DNA from: an uncultured Gammaproteobacteria bacterium
GTDB taxonomy: Bacteria; Patescibacteriota; Microgenomatia; Levybacterales; UBA12049
Length of the DNA: 64,000 nucleotides
Direction of reading: 5' to 3'
NCBI GenBank assembly: GCA_964507055.1
Contig: CAZDOJ010000001.1
Location: 273,313 to 337,312 of the forward strand
A program made the translations under genes and the position numbers. The stretch's first letter is position 1. Each line of letters opens with the position of its first letter. Positions 6,202 through 41,994 of this stretch are shown piece by piece. The notes under the pieces are model-generated. The model saw only the letters and a program-made list of their open reading frames with translations. It was not told the origin of the DNA and did not search any database.

Positions 6202-6789
6202 TTATTCTTTTGATGGTTCAGTTTCTCCATCTGTTCCTTCTTTTACTTTTTTACCTTTTTCCGGTGACATCAGTGCTACCATCTGTCTTCCTTCAAACTT
6301 TGCTTCTCGGTCTACTTTGGAAATGTCACTTAAAGAGTCAACGACTTTTTGAATAACTTCCCGTCCAAATTCTGACCTTGTTATTTGTCTTCCTCTGAAC
6401 TTTACAACTAATCTAATCTTGTCCCCGTCTTCCAAGAATTCTCGTCCGCGTCTGATCATAACTTGTAGATCATTGTCAGACATAAAAGGACCAAGGCGAA
6501 TTTCCTTGGTTTCAGAAGTTTTGGCTTTCTTCTTCTCTTCCTGTTTCTTCTTCGAGAGTTGGTATAAGAACTTGTTGTAGTCGATTATCTTTGCAACCGG
6601 TGGCTTTGCCATTGGTGCAACTTCAACTAAATCAAGTCCTTGTTCTTCAGCAAGTCGTAAAGCTTCTTCCTTTGTTAAAACTCCAACCTGTTTACCTTCT
6701 ACATCCAGCACACGAAGCTGTGAGGCGAAGATCCGTCCGTTAATTCTGTATCGTTTCTCTTGCTGTTTAAATTTAGATCTTTTTTGCAA
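6202..6789 (-). CDS. infC: translation initiation factor IF-3 (start codon uncertain, probably non-ATG internal to this ORF)
   Basis: IF3 N-terminal and C-terminal domain motifs (RINGRIFASQLRVLDVEGKQVGVLTKEEALRLAEEQGLDLVEV ... LVVKFRGRQ). The ORF overlaps the 3' end of thrS. Confidence 0.9.
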   Translation of the reverse strand: MQKRSKFKQQEKRYRINGRIFASQLRVLDVEGKQVGVLTKEEALRLAEEQGLDLVEVAPMAKPPVAKIIDYNKFLYQLSKKKQEEKKKAKTSETKEIRLGPFMSDNDLQVMIRRGREFLEDGDKIRLVVKFRGRQITRSEFGREVIQKVVDSLSDISKVDREAKFEGRQMVALMSPEKGKKVKEGTDGETEPSKE

Positions 6790-8530
6790 TGTTTTTTAGT
6801 AATACCTCAAGAAATGCATCGGTCTTGATCGATCCAAGATCTTCTCCATTTCTCTTACGCACTGAAACTGCCGATTCGGCAATTTCTTTGTCCCCTATTA
6901 TACCCATAAATGGTACTTTTTGTAAAGTAGCGTCTCTGATCTTTGCTTGAAGTCGCTCCGAACGTGTGTCAAGCTCTGCTCTAATTCCAGCATTTTGAAG
7001 CTGTTCTATAACTTTTTGTCCAAATTCGATGTGACGATCAGCGATTGGTAAAAGTGTCACTTGGACCGGTGCAAGCCATAATGGGAACGCTCCAGCGAAG
7101 TGTTCGATCAAAAATGCCATTACCCTTTCGAGTGCTCCGATGGATGAACGATGGATAACAATTGGTTGTTGTTCTTCTCCTTGTTCATTAATATATTTCA
7201 AATCAAATCGCTTTGGCATGACGAAATCATATTGGACTGTAAATGCGGTATCTTCTTTGCCGTTTACATTTTTCATCTGGACGTCGATCTTTGGTCCATA
7301 AAATGCTGCTTCCGCTTCTGCTTCTACAAAATGTGCTTTTCTTTCCTTTAGTGCTTTACGCAATGTATCCTCAGCTTTATCCCATGCTGCATCATCTTTA
7401 AAGTATTTTTTCTCATCTGCTCTATCTCCAAGTGAAAGTCGATAATGATAATCTTTCCCAAATTCGAGGTGAAAACTACTCGCGATATATTCGATAAGAT
7501 CTAGTACTTTATGGATTTCTTCTTCTGCCTGATTGGCTCGAGCAATGATATGTGCGTCAGCAAGCGTGAATGAACGGACACGCTGCAAACCAGATAATTC
7601 GCCTGATTGTTCATAGCGATAGAGTTTTGCCAATTCTGCATATCGCATCGGAAGTTCGCGATAACTATGTGGCTTATCCAAATATAATTCAAAATGATGT
7701 GGACATGTCATCGGACGAAGCATGAATTGCTCATCATCAATTGTAATTGGTGCATACATCGAATCTTTGTAATACGGGTAGTGTCCAGACTTTTCGTAAA
7801 GTGCTATATTTGCGAGATCTGGTGTATAGACATGGAGATATCCACGCTTTAATTCTTCATCCACGATAAATCGTTCCAAAATACGTCGGACTGTCGATCC
7901 TTTCGGAGTCCAAAGAGGTAATCCTTTGCCGACTGTCTCTGAGAAAACGAATAAATCAAGTTCTTTCCCAAGCTTTTTGTGATCTCGTGCTTTTGCTTCT
8001 TCGAGCATTTGGAGATGGTCATCAAGTTCTTTTTGTGTTCGCCAAGCTGTCCCATACACACGGGTAAGCATCTTATTCTTCTCATCGCCTCTCCAATATG
8101 CTCCAGCGATCGAAAGCAATTTGAAAGCTCCAATATCTTTCCGAGGATCTTCGCTATGTCCACCTCGACAAAGATCTTCAAAATGTCCTGCTTTATAAAA
8201 TGTGAGTTTCTCACCACGTTCGGCAATCCCATCAATTAACTCGAGCTTATATGGATTATCCTTATAAAATTCCCGTGCTTCTTTCTCTGTAACTTCTCTG
8301 TGTGTGAACCCTTCCCAATCTTTCAAAGTATCTGCCATTTTCTTCTCAATCTTCGGAAGATCTGCATCTGTGATAGGTTTTACGAAGTCAAAGTCATAAT
8401 AAAATCCATTCTCGATTGCTGGACCGATGGTTAATTTGGTATCAGGATACATGCGAAGTACTGCCGCAGCCAAAAGATGTGCAGCCGAATGCCGAAGTTC
8501 TTCGAGGTGATTGGAATCAGAATGGCTCAT
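6773..8530 (-). CDS. thrS: threonine--tRNA ligase (short form lacking the N-terminal TGS domain)
   Basis: 585 aa carrying the editing-domain HxxxH motif (HSAAHLL), class II motifs and a C-terminal anticodon-binding domain. Confidence 0.95.
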   Translation of the reverse strand: MSHSDSNHLEELRHSAAHLLAAAVLRMYPDTKLTIGPAIENGFYYDFDFVKPITDADLPKIEKKMADTLKDWEGFTHREVTEKEAREFYKDNPYKLELIDGIAERGEKLTFYKAGHFEDLCRGGHSEDPRKDIGAFKLLSIAGAYWRGDEKNKMLTRVYGTAWRTQKELDDHLQMLEEAKARDHKKLGKELDLFVFSETVGKGLPLWTPKGSTVRRILERFIVDEELKRGYLHVYTPDLANIALYEKSGHYPYYKDSMYAPITIDDEQFMLRPMTCPHHFELYLDKPHSYRELPMRYAELAKLYRYEQSGELSGLQRVRSFTLADAHIIARANQAEEEIHKVLDLIEYIASSFHLEFGKDYHYRLSLGDRADEKKYFKDDAAWDKAEDTLRKALKERKAHFVEAEAEAAFYGPKIDVQMKNVNGKEDTAFTVQYDFVMPKRFDLKYINEQGEEQQPIVIHRSSIGALERVMAFLIEHFAGAFPLWLAPVQVTLLPIADRHIEFGQKVIEQLQNAGIRAELDTRSERLQAKIRDATLQKVPFMGIIGDKEIAESAVSVRKRNGEDLGSIKTDAFLEVLLKNIAKKI

Positions 8531-8597
8531 GTAGGCATTATAGTAAAAAAGTTGAGGTTTATAAAGGGATAATTATAAAAAATTGAATACACTAAAT

Positions 8598-9440
8598 TTA
8601 TTTTTCTGTAGAGGTTTTGTACACGGATATATAGTCTCCGATACTTATACCTAAATCTGTTAGTCCATGTCCAGGCCGAATTCTCTTTGGATTATCGTAT
8701 TGTGGCACAATACAAATGCCTAAGTTTTGAAGTTTTTCAACACTCTTTATCACTAGAAATGTTGGAGTTCCATTCGCGATTGATTGAGAAATGTCTAGAA
8801 TCCATTTGTTATATATTACGAAAGGGTTTAGTTCTGGATCAGTTGAAGTATGGCCAATTTGGTCCAATATAGGTTTCTCTTCATAGATTTGAAAACAAGC
8901 TTTTAATACGAGTAAATCCATAGAGCTAAGTTCCTTACATAATTTCATATATTGATATCCTAAAATTTCAGATTGTTCCCCAGAATCTTTGGAAATACTG
9001 TAAAAGAAAATAGATTTCATTGCTTGAAAAACAGTTTCATCAGGTGTCTCCGAGTTATCAATGTAATTCATAAGTTCAACAAATGATGCCTGATTTGTTG
9101 TAATGTCCCAATAATCATCTTTGGTTTTTCCTTTTGACTGATAGTTCTTAAGTTCTTTAAAAAATTGATCTAATAATCGGAGTTTGATCCCAGATTGTAC
9201 TAAATGTCCAAATGAGAGGACCAGATCTTTCTTATCTGACGCCAAAATTCCAGTAGCTATCTCTGTGATTACTGAAGCTGGTTTCTGAATATAGCGTTGC
9301 ACGGTGCTAAGATCTGTTTGTACACTAATACCCGAATCCTTAATTACAATACCAATTTTTGTTTTATCCTTGTCTTTCATGCTCACATTATACCATTCAT
9401 AAAAGTAATCATTGGTAATCTCGGTGTGGTTTGAGCACAT
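8598..9440 (-). CDS. hypothetical protein (about 280 aa; the longest ORF reaches 9530 but a start at the internal Met at 9440 avoids overlap with the upstream gene)
   Basis: Long ORF with no recognisable motif, translationally coupled to the JAB-domain gene upstream. Confidence 0.45.
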   Translation of the reverse strand: MCSNHTEITNDYFYEWYNVSMKDKDKTKIGIVIKDSGISVQTDLSTVQRYIQKPASVITEIATGILASDKKDLVLSFGHLVQSGIKLRLLDQFFKELKNYQSKGKTKDDYWDITTNQASFVELMNYIDNSETPDETVFQAMKSIFFYSISKDSGEQSEILGYQYMKLCKELSSMDLLVLKACFQIYEEKPILDQIGHTSTDPELNPFVIYNKWILDISQSIANGTPTFLVIKSVEKLQNLGICIVPQYDNPKRIRPGHGLTDLGISIGDYISVYKTSTEK

Positions 9441-9445
9441 TTTTG

Positions 9446-10090
9446 TTAGCTTGCTTGCAATAAAACTTGTTGGTCTGGTGGGGAGCTGTAGATTTTTAAG
9501 TGATATTTCTGAGCCATTCTTGTGAGCCAATGCATTCTATCTTGTACTTCGTTTGCATTAGGAAAGTTCGTAATATCTTCAGGCAAATGATGTGGTGTTT
9601 CATCTGTTCGAACGATAACCATATTGGCACTTGGAGTGATGACCACACTTGCTGCGAGAGGAATTGTCAACTTTTCACTTGAAAAAAGCATTTGTATGTC
9701 TGTAGGCGAGAACGAAATATCATGGGCTCCATGTGTGTGCATATCCGCAGCTAAATATTGATCTTGTGTAAGATCAATACTATGATGAACAGAATTCTCA
9801 TCTCCTCGTACATTGTCCGTGAATGAATATTTATTCTCTTCCCAATTCAATACCAAGGATGTAGCATATTCAGCTTGCGAAGGATCGTCCTCTGATAATT
9901 GTCTTATTTGATTGATTCTTTCTGCGTGTTCTCCCAGATCTATTTTCTGGGGTAACTCATCGTACCGGACAAAGCCAGGTTCTTTTAAAGAATGAGTGAG
10001 AAAATCCTCTAATGTTGCTGTCTCGCCAAGTTTTTCTCGAGAAGGAAGAATCGCTTTTGGTTCAAATCCTTCATTTCCAATTTCACTCAT
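9446..10090 (-). CDS. JAB/MPN(+)-domain metalloprotease-like protein (RadC/JAMM-like)
   Basis: 214 aa containing an exact JAMM motif H-x-H-x7-S-x2-D (HTHGAHDISFSPTD), with an upstream acidic residue. Confidence 0.55.
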   Translation of the reverse strand: MSEIGNEGFEPKAILPSREKLGETATLEDFLTHSLKEPGFVRYDELPQKIDLGEHAERINQIRQLSEDDPSQAEYATSLVLNWEENKYSFTDNVRGDENSVHHSIDLTQDQYLAADMHTHGAHDISFSPTDIQMLFSSEKLTIPLAASVVITPSANMVIVRTDETPHHLPEDITNFPNANEVQDRMHWLTRMAQKYHLKIYSSPPDQQVLLQAS

Positions 10091-10131
10091 ATTACTTCTA
10101 GTGTAGCAAATGTCGAGTAAAAGAATCTTTA

Positions 10132-10395
10132 CTATTCTTTAAGCAATTTTTCCAACATAGAAGTGAATATTTGAATTGTTTCCTCTCTCGAAAACTTTTT
10201 CCCCTTGATTGATGTATTGGCCATTGAACTGAGTTGAGAGATAACTTCAGCGAGATGTTTGTTTTTCAATACTCTATTCCTCGACTGCTCAGTTATTCCA
10301 ATCATAGTAACAGAGCTAAAGGTTTTTTTACCTTCAATATATTCAAGCATCGCTTCCATAAGTTCTAATTTTAATTGGTTTTCTCGATCATTCAT
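10132..10395 (-). CDS. hypothetical small protein (87 aa)
   Basis: ORF overlapping the XRE regulator gene by 4 nt (ATGA); no motif recognised. Confidence 0.45.
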   Translation of the reverse strand: MNDRENQLKLELMEAMLEYIEGKKTFSSVTMIGITEQSRNRVLKNKHLAEVISQLSSMANTSIKGKKFSREETIQIFTSMLEKLLKE

Positions 10396-10598
10396 ATGAG
10401 TTCATTGGCTTTCACTTTTAATTGTCTTGCAATCTTTTGGAGAAGTTCAAGTGAGGGTTGTTTTCTGCCTTGCTCTATATGCCCCATATGTGTTCTGCTT
10501 ATATTTAAATATTCAGCAAACTTCTCTTGGGTCAAACCAGAGAATTTCCTCAGCCTTTGAATGTTTCTCCCCAATTGCTTGTGTGATTCTTTACTCAT
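10392..10598 (-). CDS. XRE-family helix-turn-helix transcriptional regulator
   Basis: 68 aa: LGRNIQRLRKFSGLTQEKFAEYLNISRTHMGHIEQGRKQPSLELLQKIA is a canonical HTH_3 motif. Confidence 0.8.
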   Translation of the reverse strand: MSKESHKQLGRNIQRLRKFSGLTQEKFAEYLNISRTHMGHIEQGRKQPSLELLQKIARQLKVKANELI

Positions 10599-10820
10599 AC
10601 TATAATTATCAATAGCGACCCACTCTCAATCTACAAGCTGTAAGCTAGCATTTAGCCTCAATCCACTCTTGCTTTAATATCTAAGTAAATTATAGACCTT
10701 TAACTCTATTTTAAATAGAGTTAATGTTATCTTCTTTAGCAAAAGACTTGGATAATGGTGATTAAGAAGATTAAATAAATAAGTTTGACAACACAATCTG
10801 ATCCGTGATTTACTGGATGT

Positions 10821-12089
10821 ATGTTCCAATTTCTTCAGCAACTGTTCAATGCCTATCTCACCTTTGCACTCAGTTTTATCCCATTTGGACAGCACCATAA
10901 TCCCACTCCCACACCTACCCCAACTCCTATCATCACTTCTGCTCCGACTTTGACAGTGGCTCCGACGCTTACTTTGGTCCCAACTGCCAGTGCTACTCCA
11001 ACAATAACTCCTACTGTTACACCAATAAAGACACCTATACCGACTCCAACCATGAGACCAAGTGCAACTCCTACAGCAACACCGACGGCGACTTTAACTC
11101 CTATTCCAAGCCCAACAGTCACTCCATCTCCAACAATGACAGTCTCACCAACTGCTTCTCCATCTTTAAGTTTGACATTGACACCAGCACCCTCAGCTTC
11201 TCCAAGCCCAACCGCTGGAATGACGCCTACACCAAGTGCAAGTCCTACGCCAACATTGACTCCGACTCCTACGGCATCAGCAACACCGACGCCGTCTCCA
11301 ACAGTGACACCAACTCCGACACAAATTCCTACACCTACACCAACACTCACTCGAGTTGGAATTGATGTGTCGTATCCGCAATGTGGCCAGACGCTTCCAA
11401 CAGATCATGGATTTGGAATTGTTGGAGTAAATGGTGGGATCGCGACGACTACCAATCCATGTATGAGTACCCAGTTGCTTTGGGCGAAGACTTCTCTTGG
11501 GACACCAAATCAATCTCCAATCCAACTCTATGTAAATACAGGGAATCCTGGTGGTTTAAATACTCCATCTTGGCCTCGCAATAATGTAGATTTGATAGGC
11601 AATGTTACAGCCAATCCATATGGTGTTTGTGATGGATCGGATTCTCTTTCCTGTGCGTGGCAATATGGCTGGAATAGAGCAATGGATGATGTACTCTTTA
11701 AATTCGCCCCAGCTGCACAGGCTGTAAATATTTCTCCTGAACCCTCACTCTATCCTTGGTGGCTTGATGTTGAGACGACGAATTCTTGGAAGTATGGTTC
11801 AGACTTCGCTTTCCAAAGTAATCGAGCAACGCTTGAGGGTATGGTGACGTATTTTAAATTTCGTCAAGTCAATATCGGTGTCTATTCGACGAATTATCAA
11901 TGGACGTTGATTATGGGAACAGTTCCATCCAATAGTAATCTTGTAGGTCTTCGTAACTGGAGAGCTGGTGCTGTAGATCTGGCACAAGCACAATCCTATT
12001 GTGGACTTACTCCACTGACATCTGGTTCAAGTGTCATCATGACGCAATTTGTCTTGGATAACTTCGACCACAATTATTCTTGCATTTAA
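10821..12089 (+). CDS. secreted glycoside-hydrolase-like protein (GH25/Rv2525c-like domain) with a long Thr/Pro-rich linker
   Basis: Hydrophobic N-terminus, then about 160 aa of T/P/S/A repeats. The C-terminal domain begins GIDVSYPQCG, resembling the GH25 muramidase GIDVSxxQG start. The start codon is uncertain. Confidence 0.5.
   Translation: MFQFLQQLFNAYLTFALSFIPFGQHHNPTPTPTPTPIITSAPTLTVAPTLTLVPTASATPTITPTVTPIKTPIPTPTMRPSATPTATPTATLTPIPSPTVTPSPTMTVSPTASPSLSLTLTPAPSASPSPTAGMTPTPSASPTPTLTPTPTASATPTPSPTVTPTPTQIPTPTPTLTRVGIDVSYPQCGQTLPTDHGFGIVGVNGGIATTTNPCMSTQLLWAKTSLGTPNQSPIQLYVNTGNPGGLNTPSWPRNNVDLIGNVTANPYGVCDGSDSLSCAWQYGWNRAMDDVLFKFAPAAQAVNISPEPSLYPWWLDVETTNSWKYGSDFAFQSNRATLEGMVTYFKFRQVNIGVYSTNYQWTLIMGTVPSNSNLVGLRNWRAGAVDLAQAQSYCGLTPLTSGSSVIMTQFVLDNFDHNYSCI
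10900..11340 (+). repeat. low-complexity ACNCCN-type nucleotide repeat encoding the Thr/Pro linker
   Basis: About 440 nt of degenerate hexanucleotide periodicity; the antisense strand gives a spurious GV-rich ORF. Confidence 0.8.
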
Positions 12090-12096
12090 GAAAAAA

Positions 12097-12123
12097 GCCC
12101 ACCGGTTGGTGAGCTTTTTGTTT
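12097..12123. terminator. bidirectional rho-independent terminator between convergent genes
   Basis: A stem GCCCACC/GGTGAGC with a GGTT loop, preceded by AAAAAA and followed by TTTTTGTTTG. Confidence 0.7.
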
Positions 12124-12142
12124 GCATTTTTGTGAATAAAGC

Positions 12143-12550
12143 TTATGCAGCTTTCTTTCCTGCGATGTTTACCATCCATTCGACCCCGAATTTATCTGTT
12201 AACATACCGAAAGAATCTCCCCAGGGTGCTTGTTGAAGCGGCTGGGCGATGTTTGCTCCTTCTGAGAGTTTGTCCCAGTATCCTTTCAATTCAGTTTCAT
12301 CTTCTCCGCTGAGTGAGATAGTTGCAATCTTTCCTGGTGTGGCTTCCATGTGACTTGGCTTATCAGATGCCATAAGTGTAAAACCTTTTTCAGTATCAAG
12401 CTGTGAATGCATGATTCCGTCGCCTTCGTCTGGCATTCCTGAATCTTTAAAAGTATTAAAGACTAGATTTCCGCCGAAAACTGTTTTGTAAAATTCCATT
12501 GCATCTCGAGCATTGTCTATGAAGTTAAGATATGGATTTAATTTTGTCAT
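12143..12550 (-). CDS. VOC/glyoxalase-fold protein, PhnB-like
   Basis: 135 aa. MTKLNPYLNF ... AMEFYKTVFGG ... and the C-terminal GDSFGMLTDKFGVEWMVN are typical of the PhnB/3-demethylubiquinone-MTase-like VOC family. Confidence 0.6.
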   Translation of the reverse strand: MTKLNPYLNFIDNARDAMEFYKTVFGGNLVFNTFKDSGMPDEGDGIMHSQLDTEKGFTLMASDKPSHMEATPGKIATISLSGEDETELKGYWDKLSEGANIAQPLQQAPWGDSFGMLTDKFGVEWMVNIAGKKAA

Positions 12551-12613
12551 GTGTAATCACCTCCTTTCTTTTTCTGCAAAAAGTATAGCAAATCAATTAA
12601 ATAAAGTGTAGAT

Positions 12614-12874
12614 TTACTGGCCGACTCTTGGGTTGGTGGCGAGGATGAAGTCTATGACTTCTGAGGCAAAGGTTCCGACGATTGGGACGAGATTCACGTT
12701 TTTTGCGATGAGGCCGAGGAGATAAAAGAAGATGGCCAAACCAACTGTTGCACCGACGGCCCATGCAACGCCGCCGATAAAGTTATTCATGATGATCTCA
12801 TACCAATGAAGGCGAGTTGAAGATCGTTCATACGGTTGCATTGGTTTGGGTTTTGCCATGTATTTAGTATGCAA
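12614..12874 (-). CDS. small membrane protein, hypothetical
   Basis: 86 aa with a hydrophobic core (FIGGVAWAVGATVGLAIFFYLLGLIA). Confidence 0.4.
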   Translation of the reverse strand: MHTKYMAKPKPMQPYERSSTRLHWYEIIMNNFIGGVAWAVGATVGLAIFFYLLGLIAKNVNLVPIVGTFASEVIDFILATNPRVGQ

Positions 12875-12894
12875 ATATTTAGTTGAACTGTCAA

Positions 12895-13479
12895 CTAAAG
12901 TCCGAGGTCTTTATGAATTCCCTGCATTGCTTTGAGTGCTATTGTGATAAATTCATCCAATGGGATATCGAGCTTTTCTTCACAAAGCTTAATAACTTCA
13001 CGATCTGCTCCTGCAGCAAATGCTTTCTGTCCAAATTTCTTCATGACTGCTTCCTCTGTGACCGAAGCGAGCTTTTTGTCGGGACGTACTAATGCACAAG
13101 CGGTAATGAGTCCGGTCAATTGATCACATGTGGTTATCGCCCAATCCATAGGCTTATGTGGGAGTACTTTCGTTGCTTGATAATTGTGTGCCATGATCGC
13201 GTAAGCGATCTCATCAGGAAGTTCAACTTCATTATTCGCGAATAATAAAATGCCATGCTTGTCGAGCTGATTGGTTGCTTGTGCACGTTCGTAATCGATA
13301 TCGTGGAGAAGCCCTGTAATACCCCATTTTTCTTCTGTCTCTGGGTTTTGCATCTCTTCGATCGTAAGATGCCTGTACAAGGCTCTCATGGTCACCTCGG
13401 CGGCAAGAGAATGCTTGATTAAGTTCTTATTTTTCATGTACTGCATAAGCAGCTCATATGCATCGTCTCTATTCATCAT
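12895..13479 (-). CDS. HD-domain phosphohydrolase
   Basis: 194 aa with an H ... HD ... D metal-binding pattern (ITGLLHDIDY). Confidence 0.7.
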   Translation of the reverse strand: MMNRDDAYELLMQYMKNKNLIKHSLAAEVTMRALYRHLTIEEMQNPETEEKWGITGLLHDIDYERAQATNQLDKHGILLFANNEVELPDEIAYAIMAHNYQATKVLPHKPMDWAITTCDQLTGLITACALVRPDKKLASVTEEAVMKKFGQKAFAAGADREVIKLCEEKLDIPLDEFITIALKAMQGIHKDLGL

Positions 13480-13483
13480 TTAA

Positions 13484-14320
13484 TTATACGCCATTTGTCT
13501 TCTTTCTTTCAAAAATAACTTGTGCCAAAGCATCTGCTCCAGCTTGTGGTTCCATTCGCATTTGTGTAAATGCAATCGCTTCACGAAGCCTCTGTTGAGC
13601 ATATGCTTCATTCGGTGCTTTTTCTGTAAGAATTTCAAGAAATAATCGCATTTCATCAAGTTTTCCTTCACTTAATCTTGTCCAACGGTTTTCAAATCTT
13701 TTATTGGCTAATTCTATGCTACGTAATGGACTATTTGCAACGGCGATCTGATCCATAACTTTAATTGTCGGGACTTCAAGGTTTGGATCATCCATATGTG
13801 CATCAATGATTGTTTCAAAATATGGACGTTTATCATCTGCTTCCGGGTAAAGGTCCTTTCCGTTATCTTTATGACTGAGAGCGACTATTCCTCTTGATAC
13901 ATCAGGTTGAGTTTTTCTTGCGATATCTTCAGGTGTATCAGGAGTATTCTCGTATAAATCATGACCCAATGCAGCTCCAAATGTTGGCAGAGAAAGTTTT
14001 CTCCAGCCAATTGCATGTGCCATAAGTATCCCCACCTGAAATGCATGATTTATCTCATCTTCATCCGTAAATTTTCGTTTGCCTTCATATTGTTCTTCAA
14101 GACTCCCTACAAATGTCCGTATTTTCTCTGCTGGAATATTTGGAGCTGCATCTGCAATGCTAAAGACTCGTTCTTTGAGGACATTTGTATTTCTTGTTTG
14201 TAATGTATCTATTACTGATGGCCAAAAGGGTACATCAAGTCTTTGTCGTTCTAGTTTTCTTTTTTGCGTTACACTTACTTCTGTGGAAATTGGTGACCTG
14301 CTTTCTGGAGATTTCAACAT
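13484..14320 (-). CDS. HD-domain phosphohydrolase (second, tandem copy; start trimmed so as not to overlap tRNA-Val)
   Basis: The HD motif AALGHDLYE is present. The longest ORF (to 14368) overlaps the tRNA at 14325-14400, so the true start must be internal. Confidence 0.6.
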   Translation of the reverse strand: MLKSPESRSPISTEVSVTQKRKLERQRLDVPFWPSVIDTLQTRNTNVLKERVFSIADAAPNIPAEKIRTFVGSLEEQYEGKRKFTDEDEINHAFQVGILMAHAIGWRKLSLPTFGAALGHDLYENTPDTPEDIARKTQPDVSRGIVALSHKDNGKDLYPEADDKRPYFETIIDAHMDDPNLEVPTIKVMDQIAVANSPLRSIELANKRFENRWTRLSEGKLDEMRLFLEILTEKAPNEAYAQQRLREAIAFTQMRMEPQAGADALAQVIFERKKTNGV

Positions 14321-14324
14321 AAAG

Positions 14325-14400
14325 GGTGGGCCCAAGAGAAGTCGAATCTCTGACCTTTGCAATGTCAATGCAACGCTCTAACCAACTGAGCTATGAGCCC
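14325..14400 (-). tRNA. tRNA-Val (anticodon GAC)
   Basis: Cloverleaf GGGCTCATAGCTCAGTTGGTTAGAGCGTTGCATTGACATTGCAAAGGTCAGAGATTCGACTTCTCTTGGGCCCACC, with anticodon loop TTGACAT. Confidence 0.9.
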
Positions 14401-39470: not shown

Positions 39471-40763
39471 TCAGACTCCTTTCTGTTTGTTTTTGAATTG
39501 AAACTCAAATTCTCTATCAGGTCTTACAAGTGTAAATCTTAATTTCGGTATTGGATCGTTCAGACATGAAATATCATCTGTACTTTCAAGTAGCGCTGGC
39601 ACATATTCTTTATGTATAGCTTGAGTTAAATGCTTGCCAAAGCATCTTCTTAGTCCAGGACTAAATTGAAGGTCATAATTACTTCGCTGGCTTGAGGTAG
39701 GATCGTCTTGGTCAGGAAATGTAAATAATGGAACTGCTAAGAGAGAATCAACGGGCATTACACCTGTAGAAATTTCCCAGGGCTGAGTGGTTCTACGCAA
39801 AATAAAAGTTGATGTTGGATTTTTAGCTGCTGATCTTTCTAGAAACTGTCTGCATAAAGCTGGAAAATCTTCAGTTCCTAATGCACTTCGTAGTTGCTCC
39901 TGACTTGTTTTATCTTTGGCCAAATTGTATGTAATCCATTCCAATGATGTTGCAAGTTCACCTTGTCCTGTAATTGTTCCTCTAAAAGTTTCCATAACTT
40001 GATCCTCTGCTTGTGTATCCAGTACCTGTGTAAGCACCCCTTCTGTTCCCTGATCGACTGCTCTTGTGACTACTTGATCTAATACATCTGTGTATGGTTC
40101 TATTCTTTTCTCTGCAAAGCGTCTTATTGAACCAATATTGCCCGTTTTAAAAACAAGTAATGGACTAGTTATATAGTAACTGTTAAAGCTATCAATAATT
40201 TTGTCAGCCTCCTCAACAGGTAAGTGCTGTCCAAGGTATGTACCGAGAATTGCTCGTGCTGCAAATCTTCTAAATAGCCGAGAAGAGGGGACATCGCCAT
40301 GTGCTAATTCTTCTGTTAATCTTTCTGTTGCAGTTCCTACAGCATCTTCTACAATAGCTTCATGTATCTTTAGATTTCTAGGTGAAACTGAGGGTGAAAG
40401 TTCAGCACGTGCATCCCTCCATTCCTCAAGTGTTGAGTTATCTTGTATAACTCCGCCTTGAGTAGCAATCATAAATCTTTTTTCTCCTGCAGGCATGACC
40501 ACTCCTTCAAAATCCGTCATGAGTACTTTTTTCGCGAGGGTTCTTGAAGTTACAAGGTATGATTGCCGAAAACCTGGAACGGAGATAGGAAGTCTCATTA
40601 AATCTGCTTGTTCTCCTACTTCTTCAACCAGTTGCTTCCATGGTTCAAGTTTCAGTGTCCTTGGAAATTGAGGATTTGATTGACCAAGATGTAGTATGCT
40701 TTTCGTTATTTCGTAAGTACTGGGCGTATAAACTTCTGGTGCATTTTGTCTTTCTGTAGCCAT
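39471..40763 (-). CDS. cytochrome P450
   Basis: Heme-binding loop FSPGLRRCFGKHL (FxxGxRxCxG) and the ETFRG (ExxR) motif. The ORF extends to 40838, but the MATERQ start at 40763 avoids overlap with the divergent PLD gene. Confidence 0.8.
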   Translation of the reverse strand: MATERQNAPEVYTPSTYEITKSILHLGQSNPQFPRTLKLEPWKQLVEEVGEQADLMRLPISVPGFRQSYLVTSRTLAKKVLMTDFEGVVMPAGEKRFMIATQGGVIQDNSTLEEWRDARAELSPSVSPRNLKIHEAIVEDAVGTATERLTEELAHGDVPSSRLFRRFAARAILGTYLGQHLPVEEADKIIDSFNSYYITSPLLVFKTGNIGSIRRFAEKRIEPYTDVLDQVVTRAVDQGTEGVLTQVLDTQAEDQVMETFRGTITGQGELATSLEWITYNLAKDKTSQEQLRSALGTEDFPALCRQFLERSAAKNPTSTFILRRTTQPWEISTGVMPVDSLLAVPLFTFPDQDDPTSSQRSNYDLQFSPGLRRCFGKHLTQAIHKEYVPALLESTDDISCLNDPIPKLRFTLVRPDREFEFQFKNKQKGV

Positions 40764-40839
40764 AACTGGAACAGAATTATACCATAGGATATAGCAAGTG
40801 TTGCTATATCCTACAGAATTTTTTATAATCCCTTTCATG

Positions 40840-41994
40840 GAAAGGCCTCAATTAAGAAAAGATATTCCTCTATCGGAGAGAGGTGTTACACAAGGATCTG
40901 AAGTTACTCTCTTAAATGATGTGCAGTATAAAGATCAACTCAGACTTCTTATCCCTCAAGCAAAAAAAAGAGTTTGGATACAAACAATGACTTTTGATGG
41001 GAATGGCAACTTTCCTGAGTTTCAAGCTTTGTTTGGAGAAACGGCAGAAAGAGGTATTGATACACGATTTACGGTAGACGCTTTCTACAGAATGCATTTA
41101 GCCGATTCTCTTTATTACCAACCTCATTTATCAAGACGCAGGCGAGAAGAAGTACGTGATTCAAAAAAAGGCAAAGAAAATGCATTAGCTGAACTTGAAG
41201 AACGTGGTGTGCAAGTTATTGAAACAAATCCTCCAAGAGGTGTCTTAGAAAAACTTAACCCTGCACGAGGAAGAAACCATAGAAAAATGGCGGTTATCGA
41301 TGATGTTGTATTTGTTGGAGATCAACATCATTTCGTAGAACATAGCCAACCTGGAACGATGACACGTGTAACTGATCCCTTACTTGTCGATGGGCTTGCA
41401 GATATTTATGAATCAGCTAGTAAAGGGCCTGGTGGTGAGGATTACGAATTAGCTGGTTCTGGTTATACTGCTCTTCTTGTAGATGCAGGTGTTCCTGGAA
41501 GGTCACTTATTATGAAACGTGCCAAAGCTGCGATAGAAGGTGCACAACGAAGTGTGGTTATGACAAACCAACATACTTCTGATGGTGAATTAGTAATGGC
41601 AATGCAGGCAGTGCAAGATAGCGGAGCTTCTGGAAAGATGATTGTTGGTGATCCAAATTTATTAGATTTTCCTTTATCTTGGATGTTTGATACGAAGAGT
41701 CAGTTGCAGTCAAGAAGAGATGGCATAACTATCCCCACATACGAAAATCCTGTATGGATACACTCTAATTTACTTTTAGTAGATGAAGGTCTTCCTTCCG
41801 CGCAAGTCTTTATGGGTACACGATGTTATTCAGATATGATTACGAATTGGGGGTCTCAAGAGGTTGCCTTACAATCCACAAACACTGAATTCGTGGGTCA
41901 GGTGGGAGCTCAATTGCGTAGATTAGAAGATGAGTCAAGATTGCGAAAACCAGACAGAACAGTACGAGAAATTGTATTTAGCAGAGGTGCCTAA
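40840..41994 (+). CDS. phospholipase-D-superfamily protein (one canonical and one degenerate HKD motif)
   Basis: NHRKMAVIDD matches HxKx4D. The second copy, WIHSNLLLVDE, has N in place of K. The start is taken at MERPQLRK. Confidence 0.7.
   Translation, partial: ERPQLRKDIPLSERGVTQGSEVTLLNDVQYKDQLRLLIPQAKKRVWIQTMTFDGNGNFPEFQALFGETAERGIDTRFTVDAFYRMHLADSLYYQPHLSRRRREEVRDSKKGKENALAELEERGVQVIETNPPRGVLEKLNPARGRNHRKMAVIDDVVFVGDQHHFVEHSQPGTMTRVTDPLLVDGLADIYESASKGPGGEDYELAGSGYTALLVDAGVPGRSLIMKRAKAAIEGAQRSVVMTNQHTSDGELVMAMQAVQDSGASGKMIVGDPNLLDFPLSWMFDTKSQLQSRRDGITIPTYENPVWIHSNLLLVDEGLPSAQVFMGTRCYSDMITNWGSQEVALQSTNTEFVGQVGAQLRRLEDESRLRKPDRTVREIVFSRGA

Follow-up and report, generated by a model that had tools for sequence, protein, structure and literature searches.

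A candidate mosaic accessory islet upstream of thrS in a genome of the Candidate Phyla Radiation

We analyzed a 64,000-nucleotide (nt) stretch of DNA (hereafter the window; assembly GCA_964507055.1, contig CAZDOJ010000001.1, positions 273,313 to 337,312) from a genome of the Candidate Phyla Radiation (CPR), in which four minus-strand genes stand upstream of thrS. We propose, with moderate confidence, that these genes form a mosaic accessory islet, i.e., that separately distributed genes have come together in a lineage-specific insertion of about 4 kb. The islet would comprise three units: a putative XRE-family repressor with an overlapping orphan gene, p87, a 12-bp palindrome being the probable operator over their promoter; a solitary, predicted JAMM/MPN+ metal hydrolase, JAB214, from a rare family that lies near Tox-JAB-2/DUF4329 and is unlike the ubiquitin-like (UBL)-tail peptidases Cap3 and Rpn11; and p260, from a widespread, horizontally scattered family of singletons, which would act alone as a conflict protein of the abortive-infection (Abi) type.

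Locus layout and accessory DNA upstream of thrS

The four open reading frames (ORFs) are located between thrS (6773..8530) and a divergent gene for a Pro/Thr-rich protein of 422 amino acids (aa) (10821..12089), as a preliminary description of this DNA had stated. An independent gene caller returned the same four ORFs, in an identical arrangement on 10 contigs from this organism. From the 5' end of the set they are the XRE helix-turn-helix (HTH) gene (10392..10598, 68 aa), p87 (10132..10395, 87 aa), JAB214 (9446..10090, 214 aa), and p260 (8598..9380), all on the minus strand. The fourth protein had been given as 280 aa long; it is 260 aa instead, a start on which the gene caller, a 73%-identical homologue (P0003), and the nucleotide homology to the locus of that homologue (L007) agree, this homology being confined to the ORF (window 8727-9364). 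The four genes had also been called translationally coupled. This probably holds for XRE and p87, judging from the ATGA at 10392-10395 in which the stop of one overlaps the start of the other, but not for the rest: this is the sole overlap among the four genes, and gaps of 41 nt and 65 nt separate p87 from JAB214 and JAB214 from p260, respectively. We found no terminator-like sites between the four genes.

In a search of 185,579 species genomes, the best matches of thrS were mostly CPR metagenome-assembled genomes, the nearest at 72% identity. In the corresponding locus of that relative (L008), the homologue (9722-9958) of a DUF5665 small membrane-protein gene ends 39 nt before thrS, whereas in the window six genes and 4.1 kb lie between thrS and the DUF5665 gene (12614..12874, minus strand) that served as the anchor of this comparison. 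The extra DNA (∼4.1 kb, 8531..12613) contains a glyoxalase-fold gene, the 422-aa gene, and the four genes studied here. None of the four was found in any of 80 thrS loci from other species, among which L008 is the only one with usable synteny, the other 79 being too divergent upstream of thrS. The nearest relatives keep the larger synteny tig-DUF5660 … thrS-infC-rpmI-rplT … pheST, and the stretch before thrS is variable. Presence and absence in relatives thus bear out the earlier suggestion that the genes are accessory and not core. The hallmarks of mobility that would go with an island were not found: the segment borders have no flanking direct repeats (att), no adjacent tRNA, and no integrase, and the GC content of the four genes falls only mildly below that of the window (35.6% versus 38.2% on average, 10th percentile; 33.5% for p260 and 39.2% for JAB214). 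The stretch is accessory at this phylogenetic depth and not demonstrably a mobile element.

Genomic contexts of the p260 and JAB families

We searched the fetched loci with hidden Markov models of the two families. None of ∼87 other p260 loci contained a JAB214 relative and none of 5 other JAB loci contained a p260 relative, so that in all fetched loci the two families are neighbors in this organism only. Neither the XRE gene nor p87 was found beside a member of either family elsewhere in these loci, and the other JAB family members (5 loci) have no conserved small neighbor. On these co-occurrence tests we reject a conserved four-gene module, and the earlier notion of the four genes as one module has no counterpart at any other fetched locus.

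The neighborhoods of p260 relatives are diverse. Among the 332 proteins encoded within three genes of 90 family members, no cluster dominated: tyrosine recombinases made up 11, in the biggest cluster (8) and another one (3), and the other clusters were housekeeping flanks, e.g., gyrA, pdxS/T, gatB, and acs. Individual loci place some members in mobile elements and defense islands. In L088 (609-10491), a RadC gene is followed by a type I restriction-modification (R-M) operon (hsdM, hsdS, and hsdR) with four embedded extra genes, which encode a NYN protein, a p260 family member, a Trypsin_2 protein, and a 235-aa protein of unknown function; 18 nt separate the p260 and Trypsin_2 genes. The 73%-identical copy in L007 (3403-5665) is split by a frameshift; its neighbors are a tyrosine recombinase gene and a divergent XRE gene, whose product is 37% identical to the XRE protein of the window, and an Eco57I-like gene is close by. 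Other relatives are overlapped by a DUF4145 gene amid integrases and an IS1595 element (L006), share a block with genes for Fic, HTH_17, and phage RepO (L005), or stand near a phage capsid gene (L090).

The closest JAB214 homologue, P0122 (E value of 7e-18), is encoded 108 nt downstream of a gene for a 543-aa AAA_15/AAA_21 ATPase (L094, 43-2393), which resembles the OLD-family AAA ATPase/TOPRIM proteins, its OLD-like TOPRIM match being weak. This ATPase and P0122 may constitute a two-gene defense pair. Of the remaining JAB relatives, one (L177) is flanked by dprA-topA and a polysaccharide deacetylase gene, another (L179) has recO on one side and an aminoacyl-tRNA synthetase gene on the other, and those in L095 and L096 stand amid unrelated genes.

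XRE protein, p87, and palindrome

The 68-aa XRE protein consists of a DNA-binding domain only and is the canonical XRE HTH that had been described, with a match to Pfam HTH_3 at 3.3e-13 (49.9 bits, cut-off of 23). It also matches the PADLOC models HTH_VI, C-protein, and capH (7.7e-12) as well as PHROG repressors, matches that are generic for XRE proteins. It is probably a repressor or an autoregulator. The p87 protein had no match in Pfam, PADLOC, the Protein Data Bank (PDB), or phage collections and no relative in any fetched locus, its sole PHROG match being to a family of unknown function (E value of 0.017). Hence, of the two proteins previously said to lack a recognizable domain, p87 is an orphan indeed, but p260 has a family of its own (see below).

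The divergent intergenic region between the XRE gene and the 422-aa gene is 222 nt long. It contains a perfect 12+12-bp palindrome, TTAACTCTATTT-T-AAATAGAGTTAA (10700..10724), which precedes the XRE start by 102-126 nt and adjoins a TATAAT-like box. The 64 kb contain only two perfect palindromes of ≥12 bp, and none appeared in 20 shuffles. The palindrome at 10700-10724 is a likely operator of the XRE protein, which would act on it as a repressor. The other perfect palindrome, ATAGGATATAGCAA-gtg-TTGCTATATCCTA (40786-40812), stands at the junction of two divergent ORFs (39471..40838, minus strand; 40798..41994, plus strand) and may be another operator.

Active site and relatives of JAB214

The JAMM motif attributed to the 214-aa protein is present: HTHGAHDISFSPTD corresponds to H118-x-H120-x7-S128-x2-D131, with E74 upstream. 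An alignment of 35 family members (21-36% identity) shows no variation at H118, H120, S128, and D131 and almost none at E74; therefore, the motif is no chance string. The same alignment conserves an N-terminal LP..IDLG and a C-terminal RM..LTR.A..Y.LK.YSCP. From its active-site residues, JAB214 is predicted to be a catalytically intact JAMM/MPN+ protein, presumably with hydrolase activity. An MPN fold is putative; in an unusable AlphaFold2 (AF2) model (pLDDT of 35.5), the secondary-structure elements come in an order compatible with it, the HxH following a strand and the S..D opening a helix.

The family is rare. A word-indexed search of 5.8 billion proteins with JAB214 returned only JAB214 itself, and 1.84 billion representatives, scanned in full with HMMER, yielded 37 relatives (clusters), 170-310 aa long. 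DUF4329 was the top Pfam family for 13 of the 35 aligned members (E value of <0.1, best 2.3e-7), and the family consensus scored 31.5 bits against it, over the cut-off of 28.6. By profile comparison, JAB214 belongs to a clade related to DUF4329 and is not a member by the curated threshold. In the PDB, the best match of the family profile was an archaeal Rpn11-like JAMM protein, at a weak E value of 0.2 with E, HxH, and SxxD in register.

DUF4329 (PF14220) is the Tox-JAB-2 domain of polymorphic toxin systems, with the motif E, H[ST]H, S, D (Zhang et al. 2012, PMC3482391). Tox-JAB-2 is divergent from UBL-processing JABs and was proposed to be a toxin, possibly a nuclease (PMC3482391). For the toxin-type JAB domains, a role as effectors that cleave nucleic acid or protein has been proposed. 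JAB214 shares with it the metal-site signature and the divergence from UBL-processing JABs. It differs in belonging to stand-alone proteins of 200-290 aa, in being predicted to be cytoplasmic, and in its own conserved N- and C-terminal regions; its sequence contains no RHS, PAAR, or secretion module, no signal peptide, and no repeats, and its N terminus is hydrophilic. RadC is likewise a stand-alone bacterial JAB protein, and hhalign aligned the JAB family to a RadC weakly (P of 0.002) with E, HxH, and S..D in register; two family members are encoded beside dprA/topA or recO. However, a UPF0758_N/HhH domain at the N terminus is missing in JAB214 and its family, as is any Pfam match to RadC, and the family is far rarer than RadC.

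The preliminary description had invoked CBASS Cap3, from cyclic oligonucleotide-based antiphage signaling systems. Cap3 and Rpn11/AMSH have the JAMM motif E…HxHx7Sx2D in common with JAB214, but a Pfam search of all called genes revealed no CD-NTase, Cap2 (E1/E2), or ubiquitin-like gene within 10 kb on either side. In addition, no PADLOC model matched JAB214, and PADLOC gave four weak single-member matches over the 35 family members, none recurring (best E value of 0.0024). CapH/CapP had been invoked as well, and this pair, like ImmR/ImmA, resembles our locus in having a small XRE HTH gene upstream of a metal hydrolase gene and an operator-like palindrome. CapP and ImmA, however, are M78 (HEXXH) peptidases and not JAB proteins, so that the comparison conflates two protease classes. 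The partner here is a JAMM protein, no Peptidase_M78 match was found, no CBASS or integrase genes are adjacent, and the pairing with XRE was not seen for any other JAB family member. Since the 10 kb on either side hold none of CD-NTase, Cap2, and M78 peptidase, and PADLOC gave no informative match, we reject both readings: the locus is not a CBASS Cap3 or CapH/CapP module.

Family and fold of p260

A profile search assigned at least 278 clusters to the p260 family, with members of 235-270 aa that are all annotated as hypothetical and lack Pfam domains. The family is drawn from Acidobacteriota, Omnitrophota, and CPR as well as from metagenomes of soil or peat, and it is marked by an invariant set of E, G, D, F, and W residues and an ETPDEE motif. 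AF2, given an alignment of 119 sequences, modeled p260 confidently as an all-alpha protein of ten helices (pLDDT of 79.5, pTM of 0.75). Foldseek found no fold match for this model in PDB or BFVD (best E values of 0.8 and 0.56, TM score of <0.3), and the p260 profile matched nothing among PDB sequences.

Abi-alpha (EF2833) is a 272-aa single-gene abortive-infection protein from an Enterococcus faecalis prophage, represented in Pfam by PF14337, formerly DUF4393 (PMC6356687). The p260 family is comparable in size (245-270 aa versus 272 aa), consists of single genes without a known domain, and is scattered, including in mobile elements and defense islands. Eight of the 119 aligned members matched Abi_alpha (E value of ≤0.1), all below the Pfam cut-off. 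The best match, P0076 (9.1e-5, 23 bits versus a cut-off of 29), covered profile positions 73-194 of 196; this protein and P0032 (E value of 0.03) are the closest full-length relatives of p260. A distant likeness of the p260 family to Abi_alpha is suggested by these matches as a lead, without membership.

Neighboring features

The gap between the four genes and thrS measures 67 nt. A consensus scan detected in it a promoter-like TTTATA-17-TATAAT (8537..8565, minus strand; 10 of 12 matches), a pattern only, as such sites are not above their frequency in shuffles; it suggests that thrS may retain its own promoter. An Rfam scan of 8000-13000 gave far-sub-threshold matches alone. Those at 12002-12180 (Phe/Trp leader and ncr952) lie within and around the short gap between the convergent 422-aa and glyoxalase-fold genes and probably reflect a shared terminator structure.

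The 422-aa protein (10821-12089, plus strand) combines a hydrophobic segment at the N terminus and a domain of ∼240 aa at the C terminus with a long Pro/Thr-rich linker, whose coding stretch has tandem-like repeats at 10979-11351. Its earlier designation as lysin-like could not be confirmed: it has no Pfam match, and its PDB matches were only to circumsporozoite protein, through the Pro/Thr-rich residues 54-164. Further along, a tRNA-Val (GAC) gene (14325-14400) overlaps the 5' end of the longest, 294-aa form of an ORF with a weak HD_4 match (13484-14368). Because of this overlap, the true start of the ORF must lie further downstream, and the gene caller gives 278 aa.

Discussion

The four genes could make up one lineage-specific system, in which the XRE protein represses the operon and a triggered JAMM enzyme processes p260 or p87 into an Abi-like effector, a new kind of protease-gated defense. 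The common strand, the short gaps without a terminator, the palindromic operator candidate upstream, and the arrangement kept on all 10 contigs speak for this reading, as does L088, where a p260 homologue in a type I R-M operon is followed after 18 nt by a different protease gene, that of the Trypsin_2 protein. We nonetheless consider it rather unlikely, since the two families co-occur nowhere else (0 of ∼87 and 0 of 5 loci), the neighbors of p260 are highly diverse with integrases as their biggest cluster (8 of 332), and the JAB clade is of the toxin type, without the features of UBL-tail peptidases (PMC3482391). Similarly doubtful, in our view, is the wider proposal that p260 represents an undescribed, widespread stand-alone conflict/Abi family, its fold unlike any solved structure, which has been captured repeatedly beside hydrolase genes (JAMM, Trypsin_2/NYN, and DUF4145) and is here wired with a new toxin-type JAMM clade under the XRE protein and palindrome into a new protease-gated defense operon.

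In polymorphic toxin systems, the immunity gene is usually located 3' of the toxin gene. JAB214 could accordingly be a Tox-JAB-2-like toxin in a toxin-immunity or toxin-antitoxin pair, neutralized by p260 downstream or by p87 upstream and controlled by the XRE protein; among Pfam families, the polymorphic-toxin domain DUF4329/Tox-JAB-2 is nearest to it, p260 follows it in the manner of an immunity gene, and predicted nuclease-type genes precede two other p260 homologues (NYN for the one in L088, DUF4145 for the one in L006). This is unlikely, however, given the lack of RHS, PAAR, secretion module, and signal peptide in JAB214, the absence of any conserved small neighbor of the JAB family, and the lack of a toxin-like partner for most p260 genes. 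Moreover, the known immunity protein of Tox-JAB-2 has an NTF2 fold (Imm-NTF2-2; PMC3482391), whereas no NTF2 immunity gene stands beside JAB214 and the downstream gene encodes the all-alpha p260.

Two further readings appear improbable to us. In one, the locus is the remnant of an integrative element with an ImmR/ImmA-like switch, JAB214 replacing the M78 anti-repressor protease and cleaving the XRE protein, with p260 as cargo. An XRE gene and a metal hydrolase gene share one strand with an operator-like palindrome, and the closest p260 homologue (73%) lies beside an integrase and the divergent XRE gene of L007; against this, no integrase, att repeats, or tRNA mark the borders, the JAB family is never beside an XRE gene elsewhere (5 loci), and the 68-aa XRE protein appears to have no C-terminal domain of the kind that ImmA-type proteases cleave. 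In the other, JAB214 does housekeeping-type work from the chromosome of small-genome bacteria, e.g., RadC-like DNA processing, and p260 happens to have been inserted beside it. Relatives at dprA-topA (L177) and recO (L179), a GC content that matches the genome where that of p260 is low (39.2% versus 33.5%), and the alignment to RadC in motif register fit such a role. Against it, the JAB family amounts to very few clusters (37 among 1.84 billion representatives), is missing at all 80 thrS loci, that of the closest relative included, and has no conserved neighbors.

The mosaic islet is the reading that we prefer, and several observations weigh against it or against the conflict roles that it assigns. 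The same strand, short gaps, and absence of terminators fit one operon, which leaves room for functional coupling in this organism. The comparison that defines the insertion involves one relative, whose thrS is 72% identical. Many p260 relatives and 4 of the 5 other JAB relatives are single genes amid housekeeping genes (gatB, pdxS/T, gyrA, topA/dprA, and recO), so that a defense context is the minority. JAB214 itself stays under the Pfam cut-offs for DUF4329 (20.3 versus 28.6 bits, 5.5e-4) and Prok-JAB (19.1 versus 25 bits, 1.2e-3), and its AF2 model, made from the single sequence, is unusable at its pLDDT. The p260 protein of the window gave no match to Abi_alpha, a similarity that is weak in the family as well. 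Finally, searches of the phage and plasmid collections INPHARED, PLSDB, and IMG/VR with JAB214, p260, and the p260 consensus were empty or at chance level, a further difference of the p260 family from Abi-alpha.

The locus also carries a caution: a perfect catalytic motif beside an HTH gene does not amount to a defense system, and here the co-occurrence test was negative. The JAB and p260 families are undescribed as such, and both fall within or near known kinds, namely, the JAB superfamily and Abi-type singletons. If the mosaic islet is real, two families would join the conflict genes of bacteria, a rare stand-alone branch of toxin-type JAB proteins and a widespread family of all-alpha singletons without a structural relative, and very small CPR genomes, too, would gather such genes right beside essential translation genes.

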